64,000 bases of DNA from Mytilus edulis (GCF_963676685.1 NC_092346.1:88908001-88972000); one strand, 5' to 3'. Shown: positions 10,469 to 64,000, numbered from the stretch's first letter. Notes: generated by a model not told the origin, from the letters alone. Numbers and translations are program-made.

Positions 10469-10829
10469 AATCACCAAGTAGAAAAGAAAAAGAGCCAAAA
10501 CAAACAGCTGAAGACTTAAAAGCACAAGACAGAAAACCAAACATAGAAACTACAAACACAGCAAAAACTGAAAGGTATAACTCTGATCCTACCATAGTTT
10601 GCTCTTCACACTTAAATGCTGAGTGTTTGGTGGAGAAGCAGAAAATACACAATATGTAGTTGGTTTCAACAAAGCAGTTTTATATTGCCATGTAATAACC
10701 TTTTTTTTTATATATTAGGACATAATGATTTGACTAGGTCACAAAAACCTACAATGTAACTGTTACTACAGTCTGTATATATATTTTATACTTATTTTTA
10801 TAAATAATATAAATATTTTCTTCTTTCAG

Positions 10830-12189
10830 TCTTTTCTCTGAAGTTGAATTTTACAAACAAAAGCAGAATTTGAATAATGAAATAGACCAGAAAATCACCA
10901 AGCATTCTGTCCAACACACCAGTGCTTCTACATCTTATGAATCAACAGTTCCTACAAACACTTCTGCTTACCCTTTTAGATTTTATATATATGAACTGCC
11001 AAGAAGTTTAAACAAAGACATTCTTGAATATTGTCATAATTATCTAGATAGAAACTGTTTTAATTTTTCCTTGTATGGAATGGGAAGAGAAATAGTATCA
11101 AACCGTTTTACAGATGGATCTATAAGTATATGTGGTACAAATCAATTTAATTTGGAACCAATTATTCACGAAAAACTTAAAAGAAATCCTTTAAGAACAA
11201 GAAATCCAGAGAAAGCTGACTTGTTTTATGTTCCTGCATATATAGGATTATTGTGCATTTGTCAGAATGATAAAGCATCAAAAATGGTACAGACATTGAA
11301 AGATTTTCTGACAAACAGTTCATATTTTTCAACTGGGAAGCTTCATTTTTCAACAGCTTCAAAAATAGAAAAAGAAATGGAAAGCAGTAATTGCCCGTAT
11401 TTGTTTCAGTCTTTTACAAATAAAATTACATATATAACCATTGAAAAGCAAAAAATGTCATACGGACTTGATACTGTATGGCCATATTCAATTATGCATA
11501 AAAACTCAATAATAGTAGCACCATACCCATCATATGGCCATTTTCAACAATCAAAAGAAATAGATTTGTCCACAGTGCCAATTCATGATAGAGACGTGTT
11601 TATTCTACTCCCTGCTGGCGAACATCCATCAAGTCATCAAAGATTTAAAATTATGAACCAATTTGATATTAAAACAAAGTTACCATACAGCAGATTTAAA
11701 ATGTGCCACATAAACCGTACAAACACCATGGTCCTGTTCTATACCAAAGAGTGTGATTATAGTATAAGTAAATCATTATTTACATGGATGCAGCATTCAG
11801 TATTTTGCCTACAGCCTCCTGGTGACTCCCCTTCAAGAAAATCCTTCTATGATTCTATCATCAGTGGATGCATTCCGGTCATTTTAACGGTGGATGGACA
11901 CAATCCGTATGCATTTCAGGAGTTTTTAGATTACTCAACTTTTACTATATCAATTGAGATGGATAAAATTTTAGAAGAGGGTCACAATATTTACAATCTC
12001 TTACAAGATGTTTCAACTATTCAAATTCAGACAATGCATGAAAAAATTAGAAAGATAGCTAAATATATGCAGTATTCCATTCCTAGTCATAAAAGAGAAA
12101 GAGAGAATGATGCACTGCAGCTTATATTTCATAAGTTGGCAAATAAATTTAAGCTTCCTTATGACAAACAATTACAAGGCATAAATTAG
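10830..12189 (+). CDS. Nested GT47/exostosin-family glycosyltransferase, coding exon 2 (stem and catalytic domain); 484 aa with exon 1
   Basis: ttctttcag acceptor at 10829; intact frame with FYIYELP, TNQF.LE.IIH, RT.NPEKADLFYVP, PYPS and FCLQPPGDSPSRKSFYDSIISGCIPV motifs; TAG at 12187-12189; AATAAA at 12303. Confidence 0.92.
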
Positions 12190-14991: not shown

Positions 14992-16975
14992 TGAATGGAG
15001 GAATAGCATGTGTATAAAAGCCACTCTTAGCACTACTGAATAGAGGAATAGCATGTGTATAAAAGACACTCTCAGCACTATCTGAATGGAGGAATAGCAT
15101 GTGTATAAAAGCCACTCTCAGCACTATCTGAATGGAGGAATAGCATGTGTATAAAAGCAACTCTCAGCACTTCTGAATGGAGGAATAGCATGTGTATAAA
15201 AGCCACTCTCAGCACTATCAGCTACTGAATAGAGGAATAGCATGTGTATAAAAGACACTCTCAGCACTATCAGCTACTGAATGGAGGAATAAGCATGTGT
15301 ATAAAAGCCACTTTCAGCACTACTGAATGGAGGAATAGCATGTGTATAAAAGCCACTTTCAGCACTACTGAATGGAGGAATAGCATATGTATAAAAGCCA
15401 CTCTCAGCACTATCAGCTACTGAATGGAGGAATATAAAAGCCACTCTCAGCACTATCTGAATGGAGGAATAGCATGTGTATAAAAGCCACTTTCAGCACT
15501 ACTGAATGGAGGAATAGCATGTGTATAAAAGCCACTTTCAGCACTACTGAATGGAGGAATAGCATATGTATAAAAGCCACTCTCAGCACTATCAGCTACT
15601 GAATGGAGGAATATAAAAGCCACTCTCAGCACTATCAGCTACTGAATGGAGGAATAGCATGTGTATAAAAGCCACTCTCAGCACTATCAGCTACTGAATG
15701 GAGGAATAGCATGTGTATAAAAGCCACTCTCAGCACTATCAGCTACTGAATGGAGGAATAGCATGTGTATAAAAGCCACTCTCAGCACTATCAGCTACTG
15801 AATAGAGGAATAGCATGTGTATAAAAGCCACTCTCAGCACTATCAGCTACTGAATGGAGGAATAGCATGTGTATAAAAGCCACTTTCAGCACTACTGAAT
15901 GGAGGAATAGCATATGTATAAAAGCCACTCTCAGCACTATCAGCTACTGAATGGAGGAATATAAAAGCCACTCTCAGCACTATCAGCTACTGAATGGAGG
16001 AATAGCATGTGTATAAAAGCCACTCTCAGCACTATCAGCTACTGAATGGAGGAATAGCATGTGTATAAAAGCCACTCTCAGCACTATCAGCTACTGAATG
16101 GAGGAATAGCATGTGTATAAAAGCCACTCTCAGCACTATCAGCTACTGAATAGAGGAATAGCATGTGTATAAAAGCCACTCTCAGCACTATCAGCTACTG
16201 AATGGAGGAATAGCATGTGTATAAAAGCCACTTTCAGCACTATCAGCTACTGAATGGAGGAATAGCATGTGTATAAAAGCCACTTTCAGCACTACTGAAT
16301 GGAGGAATAGCATATGTATAAAAGCCACTCTCAGCACTATCAGCTACTGAATGGAGGAATATAAAAGCCACTCTCAGCACTATCAGCTACTGAATGGAGG
16401 AATAGCATGTGTATAAAAGCCACTTTCAGCACTATCAGCTACTGAATGGAGGAATAGCATGTGTATAAAAGCCACTTTCAGCACTACTGAATGGAGGAAT
16501 AGCATATGTATAAAAGCCACTCTCAGCACTATCAGCTACTGAATGGAGGAATATAAAAGCCACTCTCAGCACTATCAGCTACTGAATGGAGGAATAGCAT
16601 GTGTATAAAAGCCACTCTCAGCACTATCAGCTACTGAATGGAGGAATAGCATGTGTATAAAAGCCACTCTCAGCACTATCAGCTACTGAATGGAGGAATA
16701 GCATGTGTATAAAAGCCACTTTCAGCACTATCAGCTACTGAATAGAGGAATAGCATGTGTATAAAAGCCACTCTCAGCACTATCAGCTACTGAATGGAGG
16801 AATAGCATGTGTATAAAAGCCACTTTCAGCACTACTGAATGGAGGAATAGCATATGTATAAAAGCCACTCTCAGCACTATCAGCTACTGAATGGAGGAAT
16901 ATAAAAGCCACTCTCAGCACTATCAGCTACTGAATGGAGGAATAGCATGTGTATAAAAGCCACTTTCAGCACTGC
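14992..16975. repeat. Minisatellite with 52/45/43-bp unit variants and higher-order structure
   Basis: About 40 tandem copies of TGAATGGAGGAATAGCATGTGTATAAAAGCCACTCTCAGCACTATCAGCTAC and its deletion variants. Confidence 0.97.
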
Positions 16976-24654: not shown

Positions 24655-26030
24655 TGACCATGCTTCCCTTATGACATATATGCCTTAACATGATCATCCT
24701 TCCCTTACAACAATAGGGCTTAACAAGAGCATGCTTAACCCTTAGGATAAAAGGCCTTAACATGAGTATGCTTCCCTTAGGACAATAGACCATTTAACAT
24801 GAGGATGGATCCCCTGAGGACAATAGGCCTTAACATGAGCATGATTCCCTTAGGACAATAGACCTTAACATGAGCATGCTTCCCTTATTACAATAGGCCT
24901 TAACATGAGTATGCTTCTCTTATGACAATCTGCCTTATAAACATGAACATGCTATCCTTAGGACAAAAGGCCTTAAAATAAGCATACTCCCCTTAGGACA
25001 ATAGGCCTTAACATGAGTAGCTACATTTGTACCCTTAGGACTGACAATAGGCCTTAACATGAGCATGATACCCTTAGGACAATAGGCCTTAACATGAGCA
25101 TGATACCCTTAGGACAAAAAGCTTTAACATGAGCATGCTCCTCTTTGGACAATAGACCTGAACATGAGCATGCTTCCCATTTGACAATCTGTCTTAACAT
25201 GAGCATGCTACCCTTAGGACAAAAAGCTTTAACATGAGCATGCTCCTCTTTGGACAATAGACCTGAACATGAGCATGCTTCCCATTTGACAATCTGTCTT
25301 AACATGAGCATGCTACTCTTAGGACAATTTGCCTTAACATGAGCATGATGCCTTTAGCCAGTTTAGGACACTCGGTCTTAATATGAGCATGCTTCCCTTA
25401 GGACAATTTGCTATTACATGAGCATGCTTCCTTTAGCCAGTTTAGGAATCTGACTTAACATGATCATGCGTCCTTTAGGACAATCTGCCTTACCATGAGC
25501 ATGCTTCCCTTATGACAATTTGCTTTAACATGAGCATGCTTCCTTTAGACAGTTTAGGACAATCTGACTTAACATGAGCATGCATCCTTTAGGACAATCT
25601 GCCTTACCATGAGCATGCTTCCCTTATGACAAACGGGCTTAACATGAGCATTTATTCCTAAGGACAATCTGCCTTAACATGAGTATGCTTTCCTTATAAC
25701 AATATGCCTTAACATGAGCATGCTTCCCATTTGACAATCTGTCTTAACATAAGCATGCTCCCCTTACGACAATCTGACTTAACATAAGCATGCTTCAATT
25801 AGGACAATATGCCTTAACATGAGCATGCTTTCCTTAAGACAATCTGCCTTAACATGAGCATGCTACCCTTAGGACAATAGGCCTGAACATGAGCATGCTA
25901 CCATTAGGACAATAGGCCTTAACATGAGCATGCTACCATTAGGACAATAGGCCTTAACATGAGCATGCTACCCTTAGGACAATAGGCCTGAACATGAGCA
26001 TGCTTCCCTTGGGATATATAGGCCTTAAAA
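24655..26030. repeat. 35-bp minisatellite, degenerate at the edges
   Basis: Tandem CATGAGCATGCTTCCCTTAGGACAATAGGCCTTAA, roughly 38 copies. Confidence 0.95.
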
Positions 26031-33172: not shown

Positions 33173-34121
33173 CTCCCTGCTAAATAGTTACTAGCTTGAA
33201 AACTGGGTATACTATTTAGAAGGACATTCTATAAATGGACATGTACAAATGTACAAATGTACATGGTAGTATAATATAATACAAGTCAACAAAACCTTAC
33301 ACAAGCTTGAACCTTTAAAATACAATAAAATGTTTATAATAATTTAATTAATAGAAAGTTCAAACATCTTTTTAATTATTTAATAAAAACATTCAATTAC
33401 AAATGCCTAAGATTCAGAAAGTTGGTAGAACAAGATATTTTTTTAGTTTTTTTGTTGCAACTTGTGTTATCAGTGAGTACAGTTCTATGCATTATCTTTA
33501 GAGCCTGGGGCTGCCTAAATCTTGTGGTACAGGTTATTTTTTAGCCTATTCTATGTGTATTACATGTATATTTTCTTTGGCATTTAAAAGTGATAATTAA
33601 TCATCTGTGTTTTTTTTATAATCAACATATATCACATTCACAATTTAGCATCAAGTGTGCTAGAGTTGTTTCCCATTAATCAATAAAGCACAATAATATG
33701 ATGGTAATTAAAATACAAGGTTTTTTTGGTAAAACAAGCTATCCCAAAACAGATACTTAATGGTGGATAGTTGTCTCATTTAATTTGAGGTCACACAAAA
33801 TGTTATTTCTATACATGCATGCATATTGTACATACAGTAACATGTATTCAAATGACTAATTAAACACTCAAAAAAAAATGAGTGGGATTTGTGTATCCAA
33901 TACATTACATTGATATCAACTCTTTTTTAAGAGTACAAACTAATTCTACAGGCATCATGCTACAGGCTATAATCACGTTTGCACTAATTCTTCAGATGAA
34001 TTGTACATGTATCTTTCCTTACTGCAATGTCTGCTATGTTCCATAAGTTTACCAAAAGGTTTAAATGAAAGTTTATAATTAAAAGAAAGGGAATGGTGTA
34101 TTAATTCAAAACAGAATATAG

Positions 34122-35600
34122 ATGAAAGACACTTAGCATCAAACTACAGGCCTGTTTCACTTACCTCCATTACATGCAAAGTCCTAGAACACATTGTACA
34201 CAGCAGCGTAATGGACCATTTCGACAAATACAAAATTCTCACAAATGCACAGCATGGATTCCGCAAACGACGATCTTGCGAATCCCAACTCATCATCACC
34301 ATTCATGATATTGCTTCGAAATTAAAAAGTAACAGCCAGGTAGATATCATCCTACTAGATTTTGCTAAAGCGTTTGATAAAGTGCCACACCATCGCCTAC
34401 TACATAAACTTGAGTACTACGGAGTAAACCCTAAAGCAAACAGGTGGATAAGATCATTCTTGCAAAACAGAATGCAAAGCGTTATCCTAGAAGGAGCTGT
34501 CTCTGAACAAGTACCAGTACTCTCTGGTGTTCCTCAAGGAACAGTTCTTGGACCGCTACTGTTCCTGGCCTACATAAACGACATGCCAGAAACAGCAACA
34601 TCATCAGAGACCAAACTTTTTGCAGACGACAGCCTCCTCTATCGGACTATCAGTAACCAAGCAGAAAGTGACCTACTACAGAAAGATCTGACATCATTAG
34701 AGGAATGGGAAGATAAGTGGCAAATGAGCTTCAATGCAAAAAAATGCATTGTAATTAGAATACAACCCAAGAACCGTCCGGTAATACCAACTAATTACAA
34801 ATTACACGGACACACACTGGACACCGTTGAAGCTAGTAAGTACCTGGGAGTTGCTATCAGCAACAATTTAACCTGGGACAGACACATCGACAACATAGTG
34901 GGAAAAGGAAACAAAACACTAGGCTTCATACGACGTAACTTAAAGGATTGTACTAAACCGGTCAAAGCAGCAGCATATTCAACAATAGTAAGACCCTCAG
35001 TTGAGTATGCTTGCACAGTATGGGATCCTACGAAACAGGCTAAAATAAAAGCAATCGAACAAGTACAGAAAAGAGCAGCTAGATTTGTAAACAACAACTA
35101 CACAGACCGCACACCTGGCTGTGTAACAAAAATGGTAACATCTTTAAAATGGGAAAGCCTCGAAGACCGCAGGAAACAAAATAGGCTATGCATGCTGTTC
35201 AAAATTCAACATGATCTGATAGACATAGATAGGCACCAATATCTGACACCAAACGATAGCCGGACCAGAGGAAAAAACCGCTTCTTCCAAGAAAGGGCCA
35301 CAACAGACGCCTTCGGACAATCATTTTTTCCAAGGACCATTAGAGACTGGAACCAACTTCCAACATCAGCAACATCAGCTGACACAGTTGATGGATTCAG
35401 AGCTGCCCTGAAGGCATGCTCTGCTAAAATTTAGACAGTAACATCCTGTAAATAGTTTTAATTGTATATATATAGAGAACGTTTTATCCTGTAAATAGCC
35501 AAGAGAAAACTTTCTGTGTTGTCCGACATTGCGTTAGTTTTCGCGGGACCTCATACATTCAAAATTTGAATTCGGTTCCTTACCTGGAAGAAGAAGAAGA
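34122..35600 (+). mobile_element. 5'-truncated CR1/L2-group LINE with an open RT frame
   Basis: NYRPVSLTS, QHGFRK, LDFAKAFDKV, SGVPQGTVLGP, LFADD and SFFPRTIRDWN; stop at 35434; short 3' UTR and (GAA)n tail at ~35587-35599. Confidence 0.93.
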
Positions 35601-37500: not shown

Positions 37501-40345
37501 ATAAATAAATCCACATAAAGCTTGCGGCCCGGACACTATCAATGGCAGAGTCCTTAAAGAACTAAAGGAACAAATCTCACCAATTCTTACATTGATATTT
37601 AAAAAGTCACTTGATACTGGAGAAACACCTAAGGACTGGAAACATGCTAATGTAGCCCCAGCTTTCAAAAAAGGGGAAAAATACAAACCCGTAAACTACA
37701 GGCCAATATCTTTAACCCGCTGCATATGTTGCAAGCTGATGGAACATATTATTACAAGTAACATCATGTCTCACCTTGAAAAACATCACATATTATATGA
37801 TCTACAACACGGCTTCAGAAAATCAAGGTCGTGTGAAACACAATTAATAGACTTCATTCAAGAACTAGCACGATCAAATAATAGCAACACACAAATTGAC
37901 TTAATCATAATGGACTTCGCTAAAGCGTTCGACAAAGTCTCACATCGTCACCTCCTTTACAAACTCAAATTCTATGGTATTGAAAATAACACACTAAATT
38001 GGATTCAGGCATTTTTACAGGACAGAACACAAACGGTAGTCATTAATGGCATTTCCTCCACCTCAGTACCCGTAACATAGGAACAGTATTGGGCCCAATA
38101 CTGTTTCTTATCTATATAAATGACTTACCGGAATATCTAGAACACAGTAAACTTAGACTCTTTGCTGATGACAGCATAATTTACAGGGAAATAAAAACAC
38201 AAGATGATTGTCATAAGCTACAACTCGACCTTGACTCAGCAGCTCGATGGGAGTCAGATTGGCTTATGGCATTTCACCCTGATAAATGTACAAACCTTTC
38301 CATCTCTCAAAAGAAAAATAACTACCGGCATAATTACATCCTCCACAATCACATTCTCGAATCAGTTACATCAGCAAAATATTTAGGCATTACATTACAA
38401 TCAAATCTAAAGTGGAACAAACACATAGACAACATAGTATCAAATGGGAACAGATCACTTGGTTTTCTAAAAAGAAATTTAAAAATTACAAACACAGAAA
38501 CAAAATCAAGAGCATACCAGGCACTAGTAAGACCCAAACTGGAATATAGTTGTAGTGTCTGGGACCCCCATATGAAAGAACAACAGATACAATTAGAAAA
38601 GGTACAGAGACGTGCTGCTCGTTATGTACACAACAACTACGATTACACGAGCAGTGTCACAAACATGCTAAATCAGTTGAAATGGCCACCACTAGCTGAG
38701 AGACGCTTAAAAACCAGACTTATTTTATTTTATAAAGTAATACATTGTCTTGTTGCCATTCCATCGCATATTCTTGAACAAACAGACAGCAGAACAAGAC
38801 AAAATCATACTCAGACATACAGACACATCCAAACTTCCAAGGACACATACAAATGGTCATACTTCCCGCGAACAATTATTCAATGGAATTTACTACCACA
38901 AACTGTAATTGAAACCACCACTGTTGACAGCTTTAGAGATCAGCTAACACCAGCTGTTCTCTCTAGCTTCAAATAAACAATTTCAAACAAAACATGTACA
39001 TATATTTTTTAATCACAATCTGTAACAGGGGCGGATCCAGGACTTCGATGTCTGGGGGGGCACCATGAACCAATATTTTTGTTGTTAAATATATATATGC
39101 GGATTTGAGTGGGTGCTAGGTTTGTTTTTGTGTTTTTTTTGTGTTTTTTTTGGGGGGGGGGGGGGGGGTGTCAAATCATTATTTCTGTATTTCGATATGT
39201 TTTAAGTTTTTTACTTTTGCACTTTATTGCCAATTGATCTTTATTATATTCGACCTAAACATGCATCAAATATTTGCCACTGGACGTTTAACAACCATGC
39301 AACAATTTAAACAATATTTTCTTTATATTTCATCAACTCTATATTCTGTTATCTATATTTTTTGGCCCCGACTTATACTTTTTTGCACATTATTCGAATA
39401 TCTGCAAAACACCTTTATATCTTCATAAATGGTGACCTTTTGCATAGCCTCGTCCATGTACATGCATGGTAATTGAAACAAGACCAATAAAAACAAATAT
39501 AACTGCATGCTTCGGCTTTTAGAGAAATGTTTAAGTCCAAGATTCTGTTACAAACTAAATTTTAACGAAAATCAAGTAGCATTTTATTAATGATTATTTA
39601 ATAGGAAATGTCAATTTATTTTTCCTGGACGAGGGAAAGCATTAGGGTAAAGGGGAGGGGGAGTAAATTTTTTTGTTGATTTCCCTTCCATAAGAGGGGA
39701 ATGAAATATGATATTATTTTAAAAAAAAAACATATCTTCTAAGTTATCAAAAAATAAATAGTTTAATTTGTTGCTAAATAAATTCAAAAAAAGAAAGTTT
39801 TGGAAAAAAAGTACATTTACAGGAAATGTTTGTACCTTTTCTTCAAAAACACAGATCAGACGTTTCACCTGGTAATCGATCTTAATCGGTATTGTATTAT
39901 AAACCAATACAATTTTGTACTATTCCAATCATAATGTAAATGTATTTTGATCTATTTTACATAAAATCTTTTGCATAGACATATTACACACAGGTGTCAA
40001 TATTTACACACCCACCGATAAGTTGTCATAAATCACGCATGGGGACGCTGGTATTAATTAACGGCCAGTTTAAGAAGCCTAATCAAGCTGTGACAATTTC
40101 CGCACTAGATAAGAAGTTTCAGTATCAATAAAATTATGTTAGAAAAAAAAATGTTGACCTGAACTGGGGGGGCACGTGCCCCTTGTGCCCCCCCCGGTAA
40201 ATCCGCCACTGTGTAAATACAAACACTCCAATTGTTATAAAATATTTTTATAAATTTTGTATAAATTTTTGTCAATCACGCATGCGCAACAACATGTATT
40301 CTTCAGTATTGAAGCCTTGTTGACCTTAAAGAAGAAGAAGAAGAA
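37501..40345 (+). mobile_element. 5'-truncated CR1/L2-group LINE, frameshifted, 3' UTR interrupted by a MITE
   Basis: KACGPD, NYRPISLT, MDFAKAFDKV, LFADD and SYFPRTIIQWN across ORFs 37592-38080 and 38089-38976; a small deletion removes SGVPQ at ~38080; (GAA)5 tail at 40331-40345. Confidence 0.92.
39026..40211. mobile_element. MITE with CAG termini and 5-bp TSD, inserted in a LINE 3' UTR
   Basis: CAGGGGCGGAT / ATCCGCCACTG; TGTAA at 39021-39025 and 40212-40216. Confidence 0.82.
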
Positions 40346-40405: not shown

Positions 40406-42875
40406 CATCCAAGTATTAAAATAATAAAAGAAACTAAACCAGAAAAAGAAGAACTAAATTTTAGCCCAGTACATTCAGAGTTTGTTAAAAAAAAAAAAAA
40501 TCAATAAAATTAACATAAAAAAGGCAACAGGAAAAGATGGAATCTCTTCAAAAATACTAAAATTATCCGAATCTGAAATATCCAATCCAATTTCTAAACT
40601 AATAAATAAATCATTTGAATCAGCTGTTTTCCCAGATAAATTAAAAGAAGCACAAGTAATAACCCTGCATAAAAAATCAAACACCCTTGACAAAGGAAAC
40701 TATAGACCTGTAAGTATATTGCCCATGATTTCAAAAAAATTTGAGAGGTCTATAGAAAATCAACTTGTTGAATACTTTAATTCATTTTTCCCATTTTCTG
40801 TCAGCTTTTCGAAAAGGATATGGATGCCAAACCGCTTTATTAAAAATAATTGAAGATTGGAAAAAGGCTTTAGATCAGAATAAACATGTAGCAGCTATAT
40901 TAATGGACTTGTCCAAGGCCTTTGACTGCCTACCCCATGACCTCCTCCTACTAAAATTAACCATAACCATAACCTTAACTGGCTATCTGAAAACTTTGTT
41001 TTAGATACAAAACTATTAATTTGCGGACACTTGGAACTTTCGAACGAACAAAATATTCAAATTTTCAAACATGTTCAAAATTTCATAAAAAGGTCAAACA
41101 TATTTCTTATGCCTTGATAGAGCGTTATTATTACTGACACTGAACGTCATCATTGTCATCAATCCACAAGTCATCGTCACAGAATTATACGACTTTTCAA
41201 ACTTTCTTTTTCTCTTTTTACTTTCTATCCTCTTTGTTCACCTATCAAAGCTAGTATTATATTGCATAAATTGTTTGTTTTATATGCATGTCCATTATAT
41301 TATACTATTATTGTAACTTTATATTGTATTATGGAGAAGACTTCATAAGTATGATTTACTTGTGTCTAATCCATTTTGCTTTAATTCAGCAAATAAAATA
41401 TGTTTAAACTAAACTAAAATTAAAATCCTATGGGGTTTCCGCCTCATCTCTTAAACTTTTGGAAAACTATTTAACTAATAGAAAACAGTGTGTTAAAGTA
41501 GGTACTAATTCAAGCTATTGGCAAACAATGTTTAAAGGGGTGCCACAAGGGTCAATATTAGGGCCAACATTATTTAATATTTTTTTTAATGACATTTTCT
41601 ATTTCATTCATAAAAGTGAACACTATAATTATGCAGATGACAACACCCTTTCATACGCAGATAACGATTAAGATAAATTAATTAAAACTTTAGAAGATGA
41701 AAGTAAAATTTTGATAAACTGGTTCTCAATAAATAAAATGAAAGCAAATCCAGAAAAATTTCAAGCAATGGCTGTAGGTAAAAAAAACTAAAGACAAAAA
41801 CCTAAAATTTAAATTAGAAGGTAATGAAATAGAGTGTGAAGATAACGTTAAACTTCTAGGTGTAACAATAGATTTTAAACTAAATTTCAATGAACATGTC
41901 TCTATAATATGTAAAAAAGCACCCAAACAATTAAATGTATTAAAAAGAATAGGTAAACACCTGACTAAACTCGGAAAATTAATAATTTATTATTCTTTCA
42001 TAATGTCCAACTTTTTAACTACTGCCCACTAGTTTGGCACTTTTGTGGGGAGGTAAATACAAAAAAGATAGAGAAAATTCAAGAGAGAGCACTAAGGTTC
42101 ATCTATGAAGACCATTCAGCAAGTTATGAAGATCTACTCTGCAAATCAAAATTACCATCTTTAAAAATAAGAAGAATGCGATCTTTGGCGATTGAAGTTT
42201 TCAAAATAATAAATAAAGATTGTCCTGTATATCTCCATGATTTGATTCACTTAAAGGAAAACACTTACTCTTTCAGATACCAGAATACAGCAGATCTACC
42301 ACATGTAAGAACAACTGCATATGGCCTACAATCCTTCAGGTATGCGGGTGCTAGGCTTTGGAATGAGCTGCCAGATGAGCTTCGAAAGCAATCATCTTTA
42401 AATCAATTAAAGAACTTGATAAATTCTTGGTCTGGCAGCTCATGCCAATGCTTTGCCTGCAAAACCACTTAATCTATGTTCATTATTTTTTTGGTTTGTT
42501 GCTTTATTTTCAGCATGGCAAATTTATTTTATTATCTTTACTATAGTGCTTCTGCTGCTTTGTGCTAATTTTAGAAACTTTATGTGATTTTACTGTGCTT
42601 TCTATGTGCAAACCATTTTATTTGTGCTTTCGTTTTTATCTCACAATTGCATGTATCAGTTTAACTTATACGATGCTTAAAGAACTTTTGTGCTGCATGG
42701 TTATATACTGATATGAACTCTTGCTTTTTATGTTTAATGTTGTGTGCATGACTCGATATGTATGTTTTGTTTTACTTGTTGTTATGTCGGTTTTAAAAGC
42801 TCTTTAGAGCTTATGTTTGTAATTGCTTGCTTATACCGACTCTAAATAAAGCTGTATGTCTTATTATGTCTTTAT
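40406..42875 (+). mobile_element. Decayed 5'-truncated L2/Crack-like LINE
   Basis: HPSI, KATGKDGIS, NYRPVSIL, MDLSKAFD, GVPQGSILGP, YADD and GARLWNELP in broken frames; AATAAA followed by an (ATGTCTT)-like tail. Confidence 0.88.
40961..41412 (+). mobile_element. Short 3' end of a fourth LINE nested in the L2-like element
   Basis: TSD ACTAAAATTAA (40950-40960, 41413-41423); removing it restores LLKLKSYG; encodes LLICGHLELSNEQNIQIFKHVQNFIKRS; AATAAA and (TAAAC)n tail. Confidence 0.8.
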
Positions 42876-45631: not shown

Positions 45632-45761
45632 TTAATTTCAGCATAATCACGAAGCGTAACGGAGTGATGTGAGTATTAGCGTTATTATCAAAACGTAACA
45701 TTAGACACTAATGTCATCATCACCAAAAGGCAAACTAACTGCATCTTTTATCTTGGATTTG

Positions 45762-45990
45762 GAGGTTTAGAACAGAACATGTTCCAAATGCGACGGAAAG
45801 CACCCTACCATTATAGAACGTTTTACCATGTTTTAAGTACAGACCCTTTCCAATTGTCGAAGGTTATTGACCTGGGATGAGATGTAGATTTTTACCGCGA
45901 GCTTTTCAATCGGTACTTCTAATCGATTGAACACAATATAATATGTTCTGAAGCAATTTTTGAAACACACTAATAACATATCATGACCTG
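45762..45990 (-). pseudogene. Remnant of a small Polinton/adintovirus-like core-type protein
   Basis: Manual translation gives GHDMLLV and GKGLYLKHGKTFYNGR, resembling the G.GLYL...G.G motif of small ORFs next to penton in such elements. Confidence 0.45.
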
Positions 45991-46069
45991 ACAAGCATTC
46001 AATTAACCTATATTTTGATTTGATTCCATATTACGTCTATCAACCCCACTCTTTAAGGTGTTTATACAT

Positions 46070-46620
46070 CACGAAGACGAAAACGTACTGTTAAATGTTC
46101 ACCTCTCAGATCGATTGGAGTTCAATTTCGATCCATCAGAGTAGTACGATTGGTATACAGACCAAGGAGTTCCATCTCGATCCATCAGAGTAGTACGATT
46201 GGTATACAGACCAAGGAGTTCCATCTTGATTCGTCAGAGTAGTACGATCGGTAAACATACCAAGTTTTCAGACCTCTCAGATCGATTGGAGTTCCATCTT
46301 GATCCTATAGAGTAGTATGATCGGTAAACAGACAAAGTTTTCAGGGGTTTGATTGATTTTCATACCAGGTGAACCATTTGGGAAGAAACTGTAGATAGTG
46401 GGTTGTTGTTATCCATTGTAATAGCTACCGTGTGTGTAGATTTCTTTGTTGTAGTCAAGCAGTGTTGATGCTATGGTAGACATCGAACATTTCTTGATAG
46501 CTTTCGTTAAGGTTGGGGCTTTTATTGTACTGTAAATGACACCGATGATGATTTTGATTGGGGTGTTTTTTTAGTTGCAAGTGTCTTTGATATTAGATAT
46601 AATACGTCAGAGCCAGTTTT
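46070..46620 (-). pseudogene. Penton/minor-capsid-like pseudogene, 3' part
   Basis: GSYYNG*QQPTIYSFFPNGSPGMKINQTPENFVCLPI ... LTNQDGT / PIDLRGEHLTVRF, with stops and local duplications. Confidence 0.72.
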
Positions 46621-46644
46621 CGGTGCAATATACTAAATAAGGAC

Positions 46645-46885
46645 GACAACAGTACTGTACCGCTTTTCGAAAGTCATAAATCGATTGAGAGAAAACAAAT
46701 CCAGGTTACAAACTAAAACCGAGGGAAACACATCAACTATAAGTGGAAAACAACGAAACAACAGAAACACTAAAGTGCATAAAAGACCTAAGAAATTGTA
46801 ACACTCATAGAAACGAACTATAAGATAACAACTGCCATTTTCCTTACCTGATACAGGACATTTTAAGAAAACAAATGGTGGGTTG
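46645..46885 (+). repeat. Dispersed repeat fragment inserted in the penton-like pseudogene
   Basis: CAACAGTA..TACCGCT..TCGAA..TCATAAATCGATTGAG family; reverse copies at ~51800-52002 and ~56885-57380. Confidence 0.6.
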
Positions 46886-47078
46886 ACATGACATCAATTA
46901 TTTGTTCATTTTTATAAATTGACTGGTTGCAAAAGTTAAAATTAATCGAAATACTAAGCATTTTCTTATCACAGGCATAGATTACATAAGCCGTATTTGG
47001 CACAACTTTTTGGAATTTTGGGTCCTCAATGCTCTTCAACTTTGTTCTTGTTTTGGCTTTCAAACTTTTTTAATCTGA

Positions 47079-47122
47079 GCGTCACTGATGAGTCTTATGT
47101 AGACGAAACGCTCGTCTGGCGT
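47079..47122 (+). ncRNA. Minimal type I hammerhead ribozyme
   Basis: GCGUCA-CUGAUGA-GUCU(UAUGU)AGAC-GAAA-C(GCUC)G-UC/UGGCGU; intact catalytic core; predicted cleavage after 47116. Confidence 0.82.
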
Positions 47123-47436
47123 ATAAAATTACAAGCCTGGTACCTTTGATAACTATTTACACCACTGGGTCGATGCCACTGCTGGTGGAGTTTCGTCCCC
47201 GAGGGTATCACCAGCCTAGTAGTCAGCACTTCAGTGTTGACTTGAATATCAATTATTTGGCCATTTTTATAAATTTACTGGTTGCAAAAGTTAAAATTAA
47301 TCGAAATACTATGGATTTTCTTATCCCAGGCATATATTACATAAGCCATATTTGGCACAACTTTTTGGAATTTTTGGGGCCTCAGTGCTCTTTAACTTTG
47401 TACTTGTTTTGGCTCTCAAACGGGTTTTTTATCTGA

Positions 47437-47480
47437 GCGTCACCGATGAGTCTTATGTAGACGAAAAACGCGTCTGGCGT
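47437..47480 (+). ncRNA. Mutated hammerhead ribozyme copy
   Basis: Same layout, but CCGAUGA in the core and an altered stem III; probably impaired. Confidence 0.65.
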
Positions 47481-47528
47481 ATAAAATGATAAGCCTGGTA
47501 CCTTTCATAACTAATTGAACCTGGCTTT

Positions 47529-47675
47529 GTTTTCTGCATGCATATTTGCAAAAGATTAGCAAGACTCCAGGTGTACCAAAGCCATTGCATGACTCTTTAG
47601 ATCTTATAAGTTAATAGATAGATTAAACCGGGTATCAACTTGGCTGTTATTTGCAGACACAATGAATGAGAACGA
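47529..47675 (-). pseudogene. Penton/minor-capsid-like pseudogene, 5' part
   Basis: SFSFIVSANNSQVDTRFNLSINL*DLKSHAMALVHLESC*SFANM, directly downstream of the major capsid remnant. Confidence 0.65.
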
Positions 47676-47718
47676 TCTGTATTTATAACATTTTTTTTCG
47701 TAATAATTGTCTAATAAT

Positions 47719-48905
47719 TTATTCACTTTTAAAGACAACATTCATTTATTGTTCGTAAAGACTCGACCTGCAGAACTCTATCTGATATAACCTGTGCCTA
47801 AGTTAAGTGTCAGCTGGATCATTGTGCTCGAACCCCATCCCCACTTGAATGCCAACTACTGACTCTTTTAGCTTTTCAGATTGGCGATGACGAACAAGGG
47901 GTTAATGTTTGAAACGTGTTAGGGTTGAATTTATTATTGCTAATGAGAAGATTCATGTTGAAGAACTTAATAAACAGGTTGGCGGCTTCCTTGTACATTC
48001 TAGAAAATATTGTGCAGTTGGCAGTGACCAAACATGACTGCGTTATGAGTTTGCTCGCTCGTTACTCTTCTCTTTTTGGAAGGCACACGTCTACTCTTGG
48101 CAGATAACAACGGTACCAGGTTTATGATTTAATAAACTTAAATTCTCTACTTTGGGGACCTATCTCATGCGGAAACCACAGATTATTTTAGTCTTGCTTT
48201 GGATTGATTTGTATAGTTTCATATTGTTTTCATTGGAAGGGACCACATGAGGACCGAACCAGAATAGTATAACTTAATACAAGTTTTGCTTGATCGTTAA
48301 CTTGCCAGTTAAGTCCATAAACGATCTTGCCATAATCCACCGCGAAACCAAATACGTTTTTTTAAACAATTTTGCGTAAAAGCGTTCTTTTGGTTGTAGA
48401 GACTTTGCGATGATGTAGCCATGTCTAGCTGCAAATGCAGTGTTTAAGCTTCGGCGTCAGTCGTCGAATCTTTAAACGTCAATTGGTTGAGACCTCGCAA
48501 TTTGCCAAAGTTTTCGGGATAAGTAAACAACCCCAAGATAGTATTAGTACCAGGTATACCTAGATCATTAAGATATTCAGGTATTCAATCTGCTGACCGA
48601 TCAGTTTATAACTGATGCTTTTAAAGAGATACAACTGATGCTTTTGAAGAGATACATGATACCACTGCTTGCAAGGGATACTTGATCTGTATCCGTGTTG
48701 CCGTTTTTCAGGCGTCGTCCTTTCATCAAAAGACAAATTTCATCCTAATGGACAAACGTAACTTGGGTTTCGATGTTTTTCTTATTTAAGCATCAGAACT
48801 TTTCAAGAATGCTTCAGTTTGGGGATCGTACTCATGGACTTGGTATTCTTGAATATAATTAACAAAAGATTAACCTTTTGTGAGTTTAAGTATTTTAGCC
48901 GCCAG
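47719..48905 (-). pseudogene. Double-jelly-roll major capsid protein pseudogene (Polinton/adintovirus-like)
   Basis: Collinear blocks across frameshifts: IQEYQVHEYDPQT, GIMYLFKSIS, GQQIEYLN, TILGLFTYPENFGKLRGLNQLTFKD, AFAARHGYII, KNVFGFAVDYGKIVYGL, WFGPHVVPS, LYKSIQSK, GFRMR, FSRMYKEA, EKLKESVVGIQV, VISDRVL. Confidence 0.78.
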
Positions 48906-49719
48906 GTATTTATTCATTACGATTGAAGCAGCCGTGAATGGTTATAATACCCTCGCCAGAGATTACATTGTTCAAACGAGGAGTATTTTTACTTTTAGGG
49001 GGGATGTTGTTAAAACGGGATTGGTGCTGAGGAGTCTTTGTTTGTGGTATCCTACTTCTCACTCTATGAACTACATGATCTACAGCTTTGGAAGCACTGG
49101 GTCACCCTATCTGTACAATTTTGATCTACCTCCTAATGCACGACTGATAGTATTGCCCATTTAAATAGTAATTTCACATTAATAACAATGATCCATATCG
49201 GTAGGTCTTCATACTGCCAGCCGGATAATGGCATGTAGTTGTTGATGTTTAGGTACAAATTTATAATTTTCTTTAATATTAAATCACTCTTTTTTATGTC
49301 TACTCAGCAATCTTTTCTCAGCAATCTTTTCCCCAGTCTTTTGATCCATCCCTTCCTAAGGGTCAATTAGGTCAGTGGCTTCTGTAATAATTTGATTTCC
49401 CGGATTCTTGTCTCCATCTTTTTTATCGCCATTTTTATCTATGTAGTTAATTTTTACAAAAAGCAGTGTGACACCACATTATTTTTAGCCCCTTTCAATC
49501 GATTATCGCCTTCCTTTTTTCTCGTGATGTCTGAATATCCATTTCAGCATCCGATGTTATTTTTCATGTAGTCAATTAACCTTTTCAGGCTTTCTTTTGT
49601 TTATGTACCTTAATCATAAACTCTTTATCTTTTTTATTCATTTCACTTACTTTATTCAACAGTTGATTTTAAGGTAACCTGCTAACCCCTTTTAATACAT
49701 GTTGTTTTGCCTCTGTTGT

Positions 49720-50091
49720 TACTTTTGATAACTATTTAAACCACTGGGTCGATGCCACTGCTGGTGGACGTTTCGTCCCCGAGGGTATCACCAGCCCAGT
49801 AGTCAACATTTTGGTGTTGATATGAATATCAATAATGTGGTCATTTTTATAAATTTCCTGTTTACAAAACTTTGAATTTTTCGAAAAACTAAGGATTTTC
49901 TTATTCCAGGCATAGATTACCTTAGCCGTATTTGGCACAACGTTTTGGGATTTTGGATCCTCAATGCTCTTCAACTTTGTACATGTTTGGCTTTACCAAT
50001 ATTTTGATTTGAGCGTCACTGATGAGTCTTATGTAGACGAAACGCGCGTCTGGCGTACTAAATTATAATCCTGGTACTTTTGATAACTATT
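49720..50091 (+). mobile_element. Unit-length (355 bp) retrozyme-like monomer
   Basis: Bounded by the direct repeat TACTTTTGATAACTATT (49720-49736, 50075-50091); contains an intact hammerhead. Confidence 0.82.
50013..50056 (+). ncRNA. Minimal type I hammerhead ribozyme, best-preserved copy
   Basis: GCGUCA-CUGAUGA-GUCU(UAUGU)AGAC-GAAA-C(GCGC)G-UC/UGGCGU; palindromic ACGCGCGU in stem III; predicted cleavage after 50050. Confidence 0.88.
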
Positions 50092-52001: not shown

Positions 52002-52390
52002 TTGTAGACGAAACACACATCTGGCGTATAAAATTTCAATCTTGGTATCTATGATGAATTTAATTACATCCACTGGGTCGGTGACACTGCTGATGAAGGT
52101 TTCCTCCCCGAGTGCACCATCAAGATGAAATGAATGATATTTGATATAGTCACATTTATAAATTAACTGTTTACAAAACTTTGAATTTTTCGAAAAACGA
52201 TTTTCTACCCAAAGAATTAATTGAGCGGTACTTGGCAAAACCATGCGGAATTTTGGGTAATTAATTATCTTCAACTTCGTTCTTTATTTGGTAATTTCAA
52301 CTTTTTTGATTCGAGTGTCACTGATGAGTCCTTAGCGTCGAAATACGTGTTTGGCGTACAAAAATTGAACGTTGGTATCTATGATTGGTT
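52002..52390 (+). mobile_element. Degenerate retrozyme-like unit with a decayed hammerhead (52315-52357)
   Basis: Starts with a partial GTAGACGAAAC...TCTGGCGT, includes CCACTGGGTCG, and ends GTCACTGATGAGTC...CGAAAT...TGGCGT. Confidence 0.62.
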
Positions 52391-52455: not shown

Positions 52456-52630
52456 TTATCGTCGTCTTCGACGTCGGCGGCTGCGATAATGTCCTCCTCC
52501 AACATGAACCCTGGTATTACTTCTTTGTTGTCGAATGAATTTACCGACTTCTTTCTTACAGTTCGGGCAAGTGTGTACGACATCTTTGGCACCTTTCCAC
52601 AGAAATGGTAAGAAGCAACAAAGTATAAAA
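52456..52630 (-). CDS. LITAF-domain protein, last exon
   Basis: ttttttccag acceptor, phase 2; (G)FILCCFLPFLWKGAKDVVHTCPNCKKEVGKFIRQQRSNTRVHVGGGHYRSRRRRRRR*. Not in the ORF track. Confidence 0.92.
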
Positions 52631-53394
52631 CTGGAAAAAAAGATTGTTTTCGTTTAGAATGGCTTTATTATGACTATACATAACAAAAAGGTAAAATCAC
52701 AAAAATACTCCGAGTGAAATTCAAAACTGAAAAGTCCCTAATTAAATGCCAAAATCAAAAGTTCAAACACACCAAACGAATGGATAACAACTGTCATACT
52801 CCTGACTTGTTACAGGCATTTTCTCATATAGAAAATGGTGGATTATATCTGGTTTTAAAGCTAGCTAAACCTCTAACTTGTATCATATGACAGTCGCATA
52901 AAATTCCATTATATTGATAACGATGTGTGAACAAAACAAATAGACACAAAAGGTAAAAATGTCACAAATAGGGGTACAACAGCAACACGAACCCTATCAA
53001 AAACTGTAGGTGGTTTCAGATGCTCCGGAAGAGTAAGCAGATCCAGCTCAACATGTCATACTCGTCGTTATATTGTATTTTAACATCATGACGAGTGTCG
53101 TTGATTTTACTGTCGTAAATTGAATAAATGATAAATCTGCAACACTGTAGCCAAGCCAGTAAACACTTGTTGCGACTGTAAATCTAAAATCACATCGTAT
53201 TCCTATGCAACGTTATATGTGAATGTTCAAAACATATGGTCAGATATGAATTATACATATTTTTTATAACGAACTATTACTACGATATAGATTTTATCTT
53301 TTACTTTCGGTGAACAATTCTTAAATATTTATTGTACATCAAATAGATTATAAAAGGAATTCTTTAAAATAATATGTGATGCATAAAAGCTTAC

Positions 53395-53887
53395 CCCATA
53401 GAACCAATCATTATACACCACAACCACGTGCACGAGCCTACAACATATTCTATTTCTGTAGTAATATCTGTCTGACAGTGTGGACATTTAGTACTGACGG
53501 GATGTTCATTTTGTGCTGGACTGTTGGGATCTATGGGCATAGGCATCATCATTGGTACACCACCTTGAACAATGACTGGCTGTCCATATTGATTCTGAAC
53601 AATCATCTGTTGACCAAATGCTACCATACCAGGTTGAGTCATAATTGGTTGTCCGGGTTGATAAATAGCAGGCTGTCCAGCTTGATTTGCCATTGGTTGA
53701 CCAACTTGATTCGCCATTGGTTGTCCAGCTTGATAAACAATTGGTTGACCTACTGGATTCACCATTGGCTGTCCAGTTTGATAAATAATTGGTTGTCCAG
53801 CCTGATTAGTCATTGGCTGTCCGGGTTGATTTGATTGGTTATATTGATTTGGCTGGCCTTGATCTGTCTGTTGTTGTCCATCTTGAC
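53395..53887 (-). CDS. LITAF-domain protein, middle exon (Q/G/P repeats, first CxxC, hydrophobic segment)
   Basis: Open 493-nt exon between aag| and GG|gtaagc; PVSTKCPHC...VGSCTWLWC; the three exons total 693 nt = 230 aa. Confidence 0.9.
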
Positions 53888-53959
53888 CTTAATTAATATG
53901 ATAGCTAACATATTTAAAGTAAAGAACTAACACATAAAAACATATTTGTATGCATATTA

Positions 53960-62484: not shown

Positions 62485-64000
62485 ATTCGCTTCAGTTTGT
62501 GCTGAATGCTTTACAACTAAAAACCCTTCAAAAATGCTTAACAACAAAACCACGCTTTAGTTTTTACTCAATGCTTTACAACAAAACACTCTTCAATTTG
62601 TACTCTATGCTTTACAACAAAAGCACGCATTTTTTTTTACTGAATGCTTTACAACAAAACCACGCCTCAGTTTGTACTAAATGCTTTACAACAAAACCTC
62701 GCTTCAGTTTTTACTCAATACTTTACAACAAAACCTCGCTTCAGTTTTTACTAAATGCTTTACAACAAAACCACGCTTCAGTTTTTACTGAATGCTTTAC
62801 AACAAAACCACACTTCAGTTTTTACTAAATGCTTTACAACAAAACCACGCCTCAGTTTGTACTAAATGCTTTACAACAAAACCTCGCTTCAGTTTTTACT
62901 CAATGCTTTACAACAAAACCTCGCTTCAGTTTTTACTAAATGCTTTACAACAAAACCACGCTTCAGTTTTTACTCAATGCTTTACAACAAAACCACATTT
63001 CAGTTTTTACTAAATGCTTTACAACAAAACCTCGCTTCAGTTTTTACTCAATGCTTTACAACAAAACCTCGCTTCAGTTTTTACTAAATGCTTTACAACA
63101 AAACCACACTTCAGTTTTTACTGAATGCTTTACAACAAAACCACACTTCAGTTTTTACTAAATGCTTTACAACAAAACCACGCTTCAGTTTTTACTCAAT
63201 GCTTTACAACGAAACCACGACTCAGTTTTTACTCAAAGCTTTGCAAAAAAAACAAGCTTCAATTTGTATTCAATTCTTTACAACAAAACCAGACTTCAGT
63301 TTTTACTGAATACTTTAAAACAAAACAACGATTCAGTTTTTACCCGAAGCTTTACAACAAAACGACGCTTCAGTTTTTACTCAATGCTTTTACAACAAAA
63401 CTACGCTTCAGTTTAAACTCAATGCTTTGCAACAAAACCAAGCTTCAATTTTTACTCAATGCTTTACAACAAAACACTCTTCAATTTGTACTCTATGCTT
63501 TTCAACAAAACCACGCTTCAGTTTTTATTCAATGCTTAAAACCAAGCTTCAGTTTGTATTCAATGCCTGTACAACACAACCACGCTTCAATTTGTACTCA
63601 ATGCTTTACAACAAAACCACGCTTCAGTTTTTACTCAATGCTTTACAACAAAAACAAGCTTCAATTTGTACTCAATGCTTTACAACAAATTACGCTTCGG
63701 TTTGTACTCAACCACTTTCAACAAAACCACGCTTCAGTGTGTACTTAATACTTTAAACCAAAACCAAGCTTCAGTTTCTACTCAATGCCTCTCGCCAAAA
63801 CCACACGTCAATTTCTACCCAATGCTTTATAACAAATCCACGCATCAGTTTTTACTCAATGCCTCACATCAAAACCATGTTTCAGTTTGTTCTTGATGCT
63901 TTACGCACAATTATCGTATCAGTACATGTACTCAATGCTTTACATAAAAAAAACCACGCATCAGCTTGTACCCAATGATTTACAACAAAAACACGCATCA
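62485..64000. repeat. 37-bp satellite/minisatellite running off the window end
   Basis: Tandem AATGCTTTACAACAAAACCACGCTTCAGTTTTTACT(C/A/G); homogeneous at ~62640-63200, degenerate on both sides. Confidence 0.97.

Follow-up and report, generated by a model that had tools for sequence, protein, structure and literature searches.

Evidence for a broken, internally deleted Polinton/Maverick remnant with capsid and penton pseudogenes in a mussel genome

Do the broken reading frames on the minus strand of a 64,000-nucleotide stretch of Mytilus edulis DNA (the window) belong to a virus-like element and, if so, what is left of it? Bivalve genomes hold 107,631 viral regions, 58.5% of them Orthopolintovirales, and bivalves are the lineage richest in such regions, according to the cited portion of a preprint (10.1101/2025.04.19.649669). 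Mavericks are recorded in every mollusc genome analysed in the section of PMC10294476 used here. Alpha adintoviruses are defined in PMC8502044, whose Fig. S2A lists a Mytilus mussel contig among them and whose cited part gives a PLA2-like gene as a mark of the Alpha virion module. Judged by title or abstract opening, none of the papers found deals specifically with mussel Mavericks, in a search with most subscription literature and Repbase outside its scope.

The initial annotation, made from the sequence alone, proposed a fossil endogenous dsDNA virus with capsid and penton genes, possibly of a distinct bivalve lineage. As checks it suggested a frameshift-aware search of the reverse strand, a search of the host genome for intact copies with pPolB and integrase, and a phylogeny of the major capsid protein (MCP). 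We found that profile, alignment and family comparisons agree on such a virus fossil. The region is very probably a broken, internally deleted Polinton/Maverick remnant, with unbroken relatives elsewhere in the genome, which likely underwent neutral decay after an old germline insertion, and its description as an Alpha-adintovirus-like Polinton/Maverick fossil with major capsid and penton is supported. The relic itself is an ordinary fossil of a kind already known, and likely without function today. Its features are listed below from the 5' side; relative A is an unbroken copy described later.

49717..50091, no strand: copy of a 355-bp host repeat, the 5' limit of element homology (85% identical to copies at 46882-47516)
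49097..49712, minus: pPolB gene fragment, N-terminal region (profile, tblastn, alignment, DNA matches)
49090..49105, no strand: internal deletion joint, about 8.0 kb lost as measured on relative A (where homology ends and starts)
48919..49098, minus: 3' half of a conserved basic ORF of 114-118 aa, located 5' of the capsid gene in the family (tblastn)
47731..48905, minus: major capsid (double jelly-roll, PY/hexon) pseudogene (frameshift-aware alignment 48899-47731, profile)
47523..47721, minus: penton (PX, minor capsid) pseudogene, 5' part (nhmmer E 4e-22; 37.3 bits)
46630..47521, no strand: host-repeat insertion splitting the penton gene (self-matches in the window and matches in unrelated loci)
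46060..46629, minus: penton pseudogene, 3' part (nhmmer E 6e-27, 2e-15 and 7e-10; 50.5 and 19.0 bits)
45798..45971, minus: 3' part of a conserved 192-aa ORF that follows the penton gene in the family (tblastn, nhmmer)

Virion genes on the minus strand

The order of these genes along the minus strand (core ORF, capsid, penton and next ORF) is that of the family. They had been described as hidden from the ORF track, and no in-frame ORF of at least 90 aa covers them; the three motif blocks quoted for them were recovered by three-frame translation in minus-strand frames where the initial annotation had placed them.

A near full-length pseudogene of about 1.2 kb had been proposed at 47719-48905, and the frameshift-aware search of the reverse strand bears this out, with an alignment spanning 48899-47731. 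Compared with relative A, 358 of 428 codons are aligned with 58% identity, and the damage amounts to about 7 stops, 12 frameshifts and deletions of up to 22 codons, where the stop and frameshift counts vary with aligner penalties. A capsid profile built from 61 natural homologs matched seven collinear segments of the minus strand, from 48896 to 47759, with scores of 8.7-39.4 bits; the maximum was 6.6 bits among 100 shuffles and 4.2 bits in the rest of the window. The Pfam model PF21738 misses the relic in all six single frames, which fits its heavy frameshifting; in the mussel's own genome this model gave 128 match pieces from the 126 of 233 candidates scored, the relic locus being absent. The 1.2-kb segment is also found at nine other places in this genome, with 65-80% identity.

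The capsid fold was examined on the protein of relative A rather than on the relic's own product. That protein matches PF21738 with E 4e-64, and its predicted structure (pLDDT 78.7, pTM 0.81) is a double jelly-roll. The model matches the capsids of iridovirus, PBCV-1, mavirus and Sputnik with E of about 1e-15 to 1e-14, and also PRD1 and viral models including adintovirus and MELD virus entries. The small basic ORF next to the capsid gene was identified by tblastn to relatives A and B (E 1e-8 and 2e-10) and by an alignment score of 105, compared with at most 36 in 20 shuffles; from its position and composition, the product is likely a virion core protein.

The second gene had been read as split by insertions (47675-47529 and 46620-46070), and penton homology indeed occupies 47721-47523 and 46629-46060, the penton profile reaching at most 5.3 bits in 100 shuffles. 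The 3' part has lost about 30 internal codons and shows a 49-bp tandem expansion at 46101-46337. The sequence that splits the gene, about 0.9 kb long, consists of roughly two 355-bp repeat units, which form tandem arrays genome-wide, together with a second dispersed repeat at 46647-46861, and its insertion is later than the element. When the first 60 residues of the PX protein of Polinton-4_NV, as given in two supplement rows of PMC4028283, are compared by eye with the penton of relative A, about 38 agree. A single-sequence model of the penton fold had a pLDDT of 32, and profile searches of PDB and Pfam were blank; an Atlas search returned viral clusters with no names, and the 4944 relatives at E 0.001 or better are nameless.

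A third small gene had been placed at 45990-45762. A gene remnant is present there, but its homology extends only over 45971-45798 (tblastn E 3e-7; nhmmer E 9e-8; score 97 against at most 35 in 20 shuffles). The 192-aa ORF to which it belongs may possibly encode a pX-like virion core or membrane-active protein. Its Atlas neighbours are unnamed Preplasmiviricota and mollusc clusters, and PF05829 (Adeno_PX) scores 0.84, in 20% of members, which we take as a lead only. The ORF that comes next in the family scored 28 at the relic, against a shuffle maximum of 38.

A cellular or LINE origin of the locus was rejected, since all pieces of the relic have their counterpart in a Polinton gene. Elsewhere in the window, an RT-bearing LINE at 34079-35434 is unrelated to the relic. 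A phage DNA search gave no match, and Rfam none within the window.

The pPolB fragment, the deletion joint and the unbroken relatives

The initial annotation recognised no pPolB, integrase, ATPase or terminal inverted repeat. With regard to pPolB this was wrong: a broken N-terminal piece of the gene, without the catalytic part, lies upstream of the virion genes. It corresponds approximately to residues 270-497 of the stop-to-stop frame of relative A, and is interrupted by stops and frameshifts. The profile match at 49498-49097 reached 26.7 bits (at most 4.0 in 100 shuffles), tblastn gave E 3e-5 to 9e-5, and the alignment with relative B over 49710-49097 scored 107 (at most 44 in 20 shuffles); furthermore, DNA matches at 49321-49499 and 49529-49712 connect the fragment with the pPolB region of another copy, at G000:C10:23.70 Mb. 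It likely comprises the end of a terminal-protein domain and the start of a vOTU domain, names that follow the pPolB layout in the cited part of PMC11071308 and not a profile; of the OTU domain, the relatives show the Cys motif only. The fragments of small upstream ORFs noticed near 49370-49410 are homologous sequence, but they form part of this pPolB piece and not separate ORFs; the profile used the neighbouring frame there, and the frame originally read resembles the family protein by eye. Beyond the repeat at 49717-50091 no 5' end of the element was detected (score 46, shuffle maximum 47).

The pPolB homology stops at 49097 and that of the next gene begins at 49098-49095. The genes lost at this joint are the rest of pPolB, the putative protease, the integrase, the PLA2-like gene, the A32/FtsK packaging ATPase and three further ORFs, and the 8-kb middle part of the family has no match in the window. 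There may be a microhomology of 2 bases at the joint, a length that carries no meaning. As the initial annotation had observed for integrase, ATPase and terminal repeats, we found none of these, nor a protease, in the window and 10 kb on either side. An inverted-repeat scan around the relic returned host repeats only, terminal and 3'-region models gave nothing better than E 0.12 at the relic, and neither a target-site duplication nor AGT-ended terminal inverted repeats were seen around it; both terminal repeats have been lost. Because searches for integrase, ATPase and terminus found none here, we file the locus as a remnant and not as an element; complete members of its Polinton/Maverick family have all three.

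The search of the host genome for intact copies with pPolB and integrase yielded two unbroken relatives of 13-14 kb each, relative A (G000:C6:4619608-4632916) and relative B (G000:C10:82981823-82996125). Their inverted repeats, 111 bp in A and 137 bp in B, are 100% identical, their ends are AGTAGT...ACTACT, and both are flanked by perfect 6-bp duplications; their G+C content is about 52%, and that of the flanks near 30%. A third, imperfect copy (G000:C3:22882915-22897632) has repeats of 94.6% identity and 5 of 6 duplication bases. The family gene order is pPolB, a putative protease, an ORF, integrase and PLA2-like gene on the opposite strand, ATPase and two ORFs, followed by the small basic ORF, capsid, penton, two ORFs and one opposite-strand ORF.

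In relative A, pPolB matches PF03175 (E 1.7e-26, in a 1449-aa frame) and the ATPase PF04665 (Pox_A32; E 6.8e-7); the integrase of relative B matches PF00665 (rve; E 1.6e-10), for which relative A has a homologous ORF, and the PLA2-like gene matches PF08398. Seven of the 14 proteins of the relatives scanned with Pfam, including the putative protease, had no match above the curated cut-off. This last protein, a 137-aa ORF after pPolB in both relatives, may be an adenovirus-like maturation protease, to judge from His/Asp/Cys motifs, although Pfam gives no match. The capsid genes of A and B differ in 118 codons synonymously and in 46 otherwise, with 33, 18 and 137 differences at first, second and third codon positions.

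We infer the insertion mechanism of the relic from these relatives, because it retains neither an integrase nor a terminal repeat or target-site duplication of its own. Its ancestor would have integrated through a retroviral-type integrase, copied itself with a protein-primed polymerase, and packaged its linear genome via an A32-like ATPase into a capsid of double-jelly-roll hexon and penton. An old germline insertion would then have been followed by neutral decay with internal deletion.

Decay, age and place in the family

Of 97 highly conserved capsid residues, 64 are still present in the relic; seven better-preserved copies retain 87-100%, and a similarly decayed copy on C9 retains 50 of 78. 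Where five references agree, the relic has mismatches at 53 of 229 first positions, 53 of 255 second positions (a roughly equal share) and 42 of 77 third positions, and G/C-to-A/T changes outnumber the opposite ones about two to one (76 vs 36). Random decay at 0.18 per site, with 66% of residues kept and 7.4 stops, reproduces the 66% and 7 stops of the relic, which fits neutral decay at about 0.18 substitutions per site. The codon-position pattern, with its third-position excess, points to a divergence that took place before the ancestor lost its function.

Of 120 matches, 25 were tested against the relic capsid; nine capsids from the resident group gave scores of 586-708, and the other 16 gave 377-461. 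The DNA of the relic is 60-64% identical to the best-preserved copies. The nearest capsids form a tight group at 73-97% identity, followed by a drop to 62% or less. This group appears mussel-like because its named members are Mytilus proteins, most members being nameless. The suggestion of a distinct bivalve lineage holds in so far as the nearest capsids are such a group; however, a Mytilus Alpha adintovirus is already listed in Fig. S2A of PMC8502044.

The MCP phylogeny, a capsid DNA tree, included 24 stretches: the relic, eight neighbourhood copies, 14 further PF21738 loci and one IMG/VR outgroup, leaving out one short copy and 108 weaker PF21738 matches. The relic and the C9 and C6:26.25 Mb copies (support 95) fell outside the other 20 (99). 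Upon purine/pyrimidine recoding the 20 stay together (89) and the relic and C9 copy are joined at 77, but the three-copy group is lost; long-branch effects are possible in this tree. Among 19 diagnostic columns, the relic has 11 family-type and 4 outgroup-type residues, and with outgroup guides the counts are 9 vs 5, 11 vs 5 and 9 vs 6. The relic likely derives from an older subfamily than most copies, its placement in the tree being moderately resolved.

All or part of the stretch is carried by 20 of 24 listed runs, 16 of them with at least half of its words. The carrying runs are labelled organism A, B or C, or mollusc or food metagenome, and the best two may be the source. Among four runs examined, the deletion joint is bridged by contigs of X3 (organism A; 6 differences in 862) and X4 (organism B; 7 in 1064); in run X18 (organism C) 16 of 30 bins are covered and the joint is not bridged. 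Other individuals and the second organism label differ from the relic by 0.7-1.4%, an identity of about 99% that includes the joint. Since X3 and X4 bridge the joint with few differences, the deletion and most of the decay are older than the separation of these alleles. The sharing provides a weak date only, because the labelled organisms may be so closely related that they hybridise.

The relic likely lies between genes: upstream on the same strand there is a LITAF-like gene, whose apparent last exon is separated from the relic by about 2.8 kb. No RNA data set is among the listed runs that carry the stretch, and the one RNA run examined yielded a single contig of 357 bp; neither is evidence on expression.

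Alternative readings and known systems

The deleted form might once have been mobile, as a short non-autonomous derivative with virion genes that was copied in trans by complete elements. The genes for replication and integration are those that the deletion removes, with the virion block kept whole, and large internal deletions also occur in the copies at G000:C10:23.70 Mb and C3:88.82 Mb. The joints of those copies differ from that of the relic, however, and the relic's own joint was found once, with no second copy among two candidates, both scored, or among the 40 of 302 scored in a wider scan; no termini survive at the relic either, and we regard such mobility as very unlikely. The greater difference at third positions (42/77) than at first and second (about 0.22), and the branching of the relic outside the main 20 copies, might instead suggest a separate lineage outside the resident family, a Polinton-like virus or other double-jelly-roll virus. 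This pattern fits an older subfamily, though, the capsid scores favour the resident group, and both the arrangement of the genes and the pPolB piece agree with the resident family, so that a separate lineage is likewise highly improbable.

Co-option by the host could have made the relic a source of small RNAs against active relatives, or regulatory DNA near the LITAF-like gene, a reading in line with the retention of the locus in several individuals and organism labels and with its position downstream of that gene on the same strand. Any old insertion would nevertheless be expected to persist in close relatives, protein use is excluded by stops and frameshifts throughout, the decay fits neutrality, and at 60-64% DNA identity small RNAs would hardly target the best-preserved copies. 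Co-option is in our judgement extremely unlikely.

Within the preferred reading, a decayed remnant of a resident Polinton/Maverick family, it is tentatively conceivable, if on balance doubtful, that the relic is a dated, shared fossil from an older wave of a still-mobile mussel lineage. G+C-rich intact copies with identical repeats and capsid genes under purifying selection are what would be expected if the lineage re-enters the germline from a virus phase. If true, the relic and the unbroken copies would together form an extended time series of a single bivalve DNA virus. Decayed copies such as the relic are numerous in this genome, which has at least 128 capsid-domain match pieces, and the relic's value is modest, as a calibration point and an old insertion across organism labels that is too decayed for Pfam; it shows more than one wave of the family in the mussel host lineage. 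The more useful by-product is the unbroken relatives, which make particle formation by animal Mavericks testable by observation in an accessible animal.

As to known systems, relatives A and B resemble Alpha adintoviruses in their PF03175-type pPolB, rve integrase, FtsK/A32 ATPase, PLA2-like gene, hexon, penton and inverted repeats, and the nearest named homologs are Mytilus proteins. Unlike the Mytilus contig in Fig. S2A of PMC8502044, here compared by its map label only, the copy in the window is a deleted fossil. Polinton-4_NV of Nematostella vectensis (13,070 bp; PMC4028283) shares the YSFFP block found in the relic, a similar length, and capsid, penton and ATPase, but comes from another host phylum and is compared through two alignment rows of that source. 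Vertebrate Mavericks, as presented in the cited part of Barreat and Katzourakis 2021 (PMC8097293), have intronless core genes, 5'-(AGT)2...(ACT)2-3' ends and 6-bp duplications, and few intact copies among many degraded ones, as in the mussel genome. They are described there with two convergent modules, whereas in the mussel elements one strand carries pPolB, the putative protease, ATPase, capsid and penton, and the opposite strand carries integrase and the PLA2-like gene. Finally, IMGVR_UViG_3300027549_000010 (L077) has 58% capsid identity and, by ORF inspection, the same gene inventory, but in it the penton and next ORF precede the capsid block.

Unbroken members of the resident family

Two unbroken members of the Polinton/Maverick family to which the decayed relic of the window belongs are present in the same genome (G000). 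In each of them the terminal repeats match exactly and the 6-bp target-site duplication is free of mismatches:

G000:C6:4619608-4632916 (L031-L032), relative A, 13.3 kb
G000:C10:82981823-82996125 (L034-L035), relative B, 14.3 kb

Because the repeats are identical and the duplications perfect, both relatives are probably recent insertions. Their capsids share 89% identity. The PLA2-like and integrase regions are held in a single stop-free frame of 573 aa in relative B, and are split over two overlapping frames in relative A.

Decay within the family and possible other Polinton families

Across the copies of the capsid gene in this genome, G+C declines with decay: an unbroken copy has 54%, lightly broken copies have 41-47% and the most decayed 36-38%. 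The drop is mostly located at third positions. A further remnant of the family that is also heavily deleted (G000:C3:88824100-88827300, L068) is found on the other strand at a distance of about 130 kb from the window, and its deletion joints differ from those of the window relic.

A profile search with PF03175 (pPolB) gave 136 match pieces spread over many contigs of the genome, many of them within open frames of 1250-1870 aa; at roughly two dozen loci the frame is close to 1250-1280 aa long. These open-frame matches far outnumber unbroken capsid genes of the double-jelly-roll profile PF21738. The genome seems also to hold other Polinton families, with different capsids or without capsids, which possibly expanded recently.

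Further genes, open frames and repeats in the window

The following further features were located in the window:

10813-12189, plus, Exostosin GT47 glycosyltransferase domain in a single 458-aa open frame (E 8e-36)
14992-16973, long minisatellite array, period 52 bp
24655-26028, long minisatellite array, period 35 bp
34079-35434, plus, LINE reverse-transcriptase remnant (PF00078, E 2.5e-33)
37505-38976, plus, LINE reverse-transcriptase remnant (by inspection)
40458-42472, plus, LINE reverse-transcriptase remnant (by inspection)
46882-47516, 49717-50091 and 52003-52385, 355-bp repeat
52490-53888, minus, LITAF-like gene (PF10601, E 6e-9)
62533-64000, long minisatellite array, period 37 bp

One exon of the LITAF-like gene is a Gln/Pro-rich repeat, and its apparent last exon lies near 52650-52490. 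The three LINE remnants lie near one another. An Rfam search of the window matched nothing for the 355-bp repeat, which occurs genome-wide as single copies and tandem arrays and is also inserted in further decayed Polinton copies.
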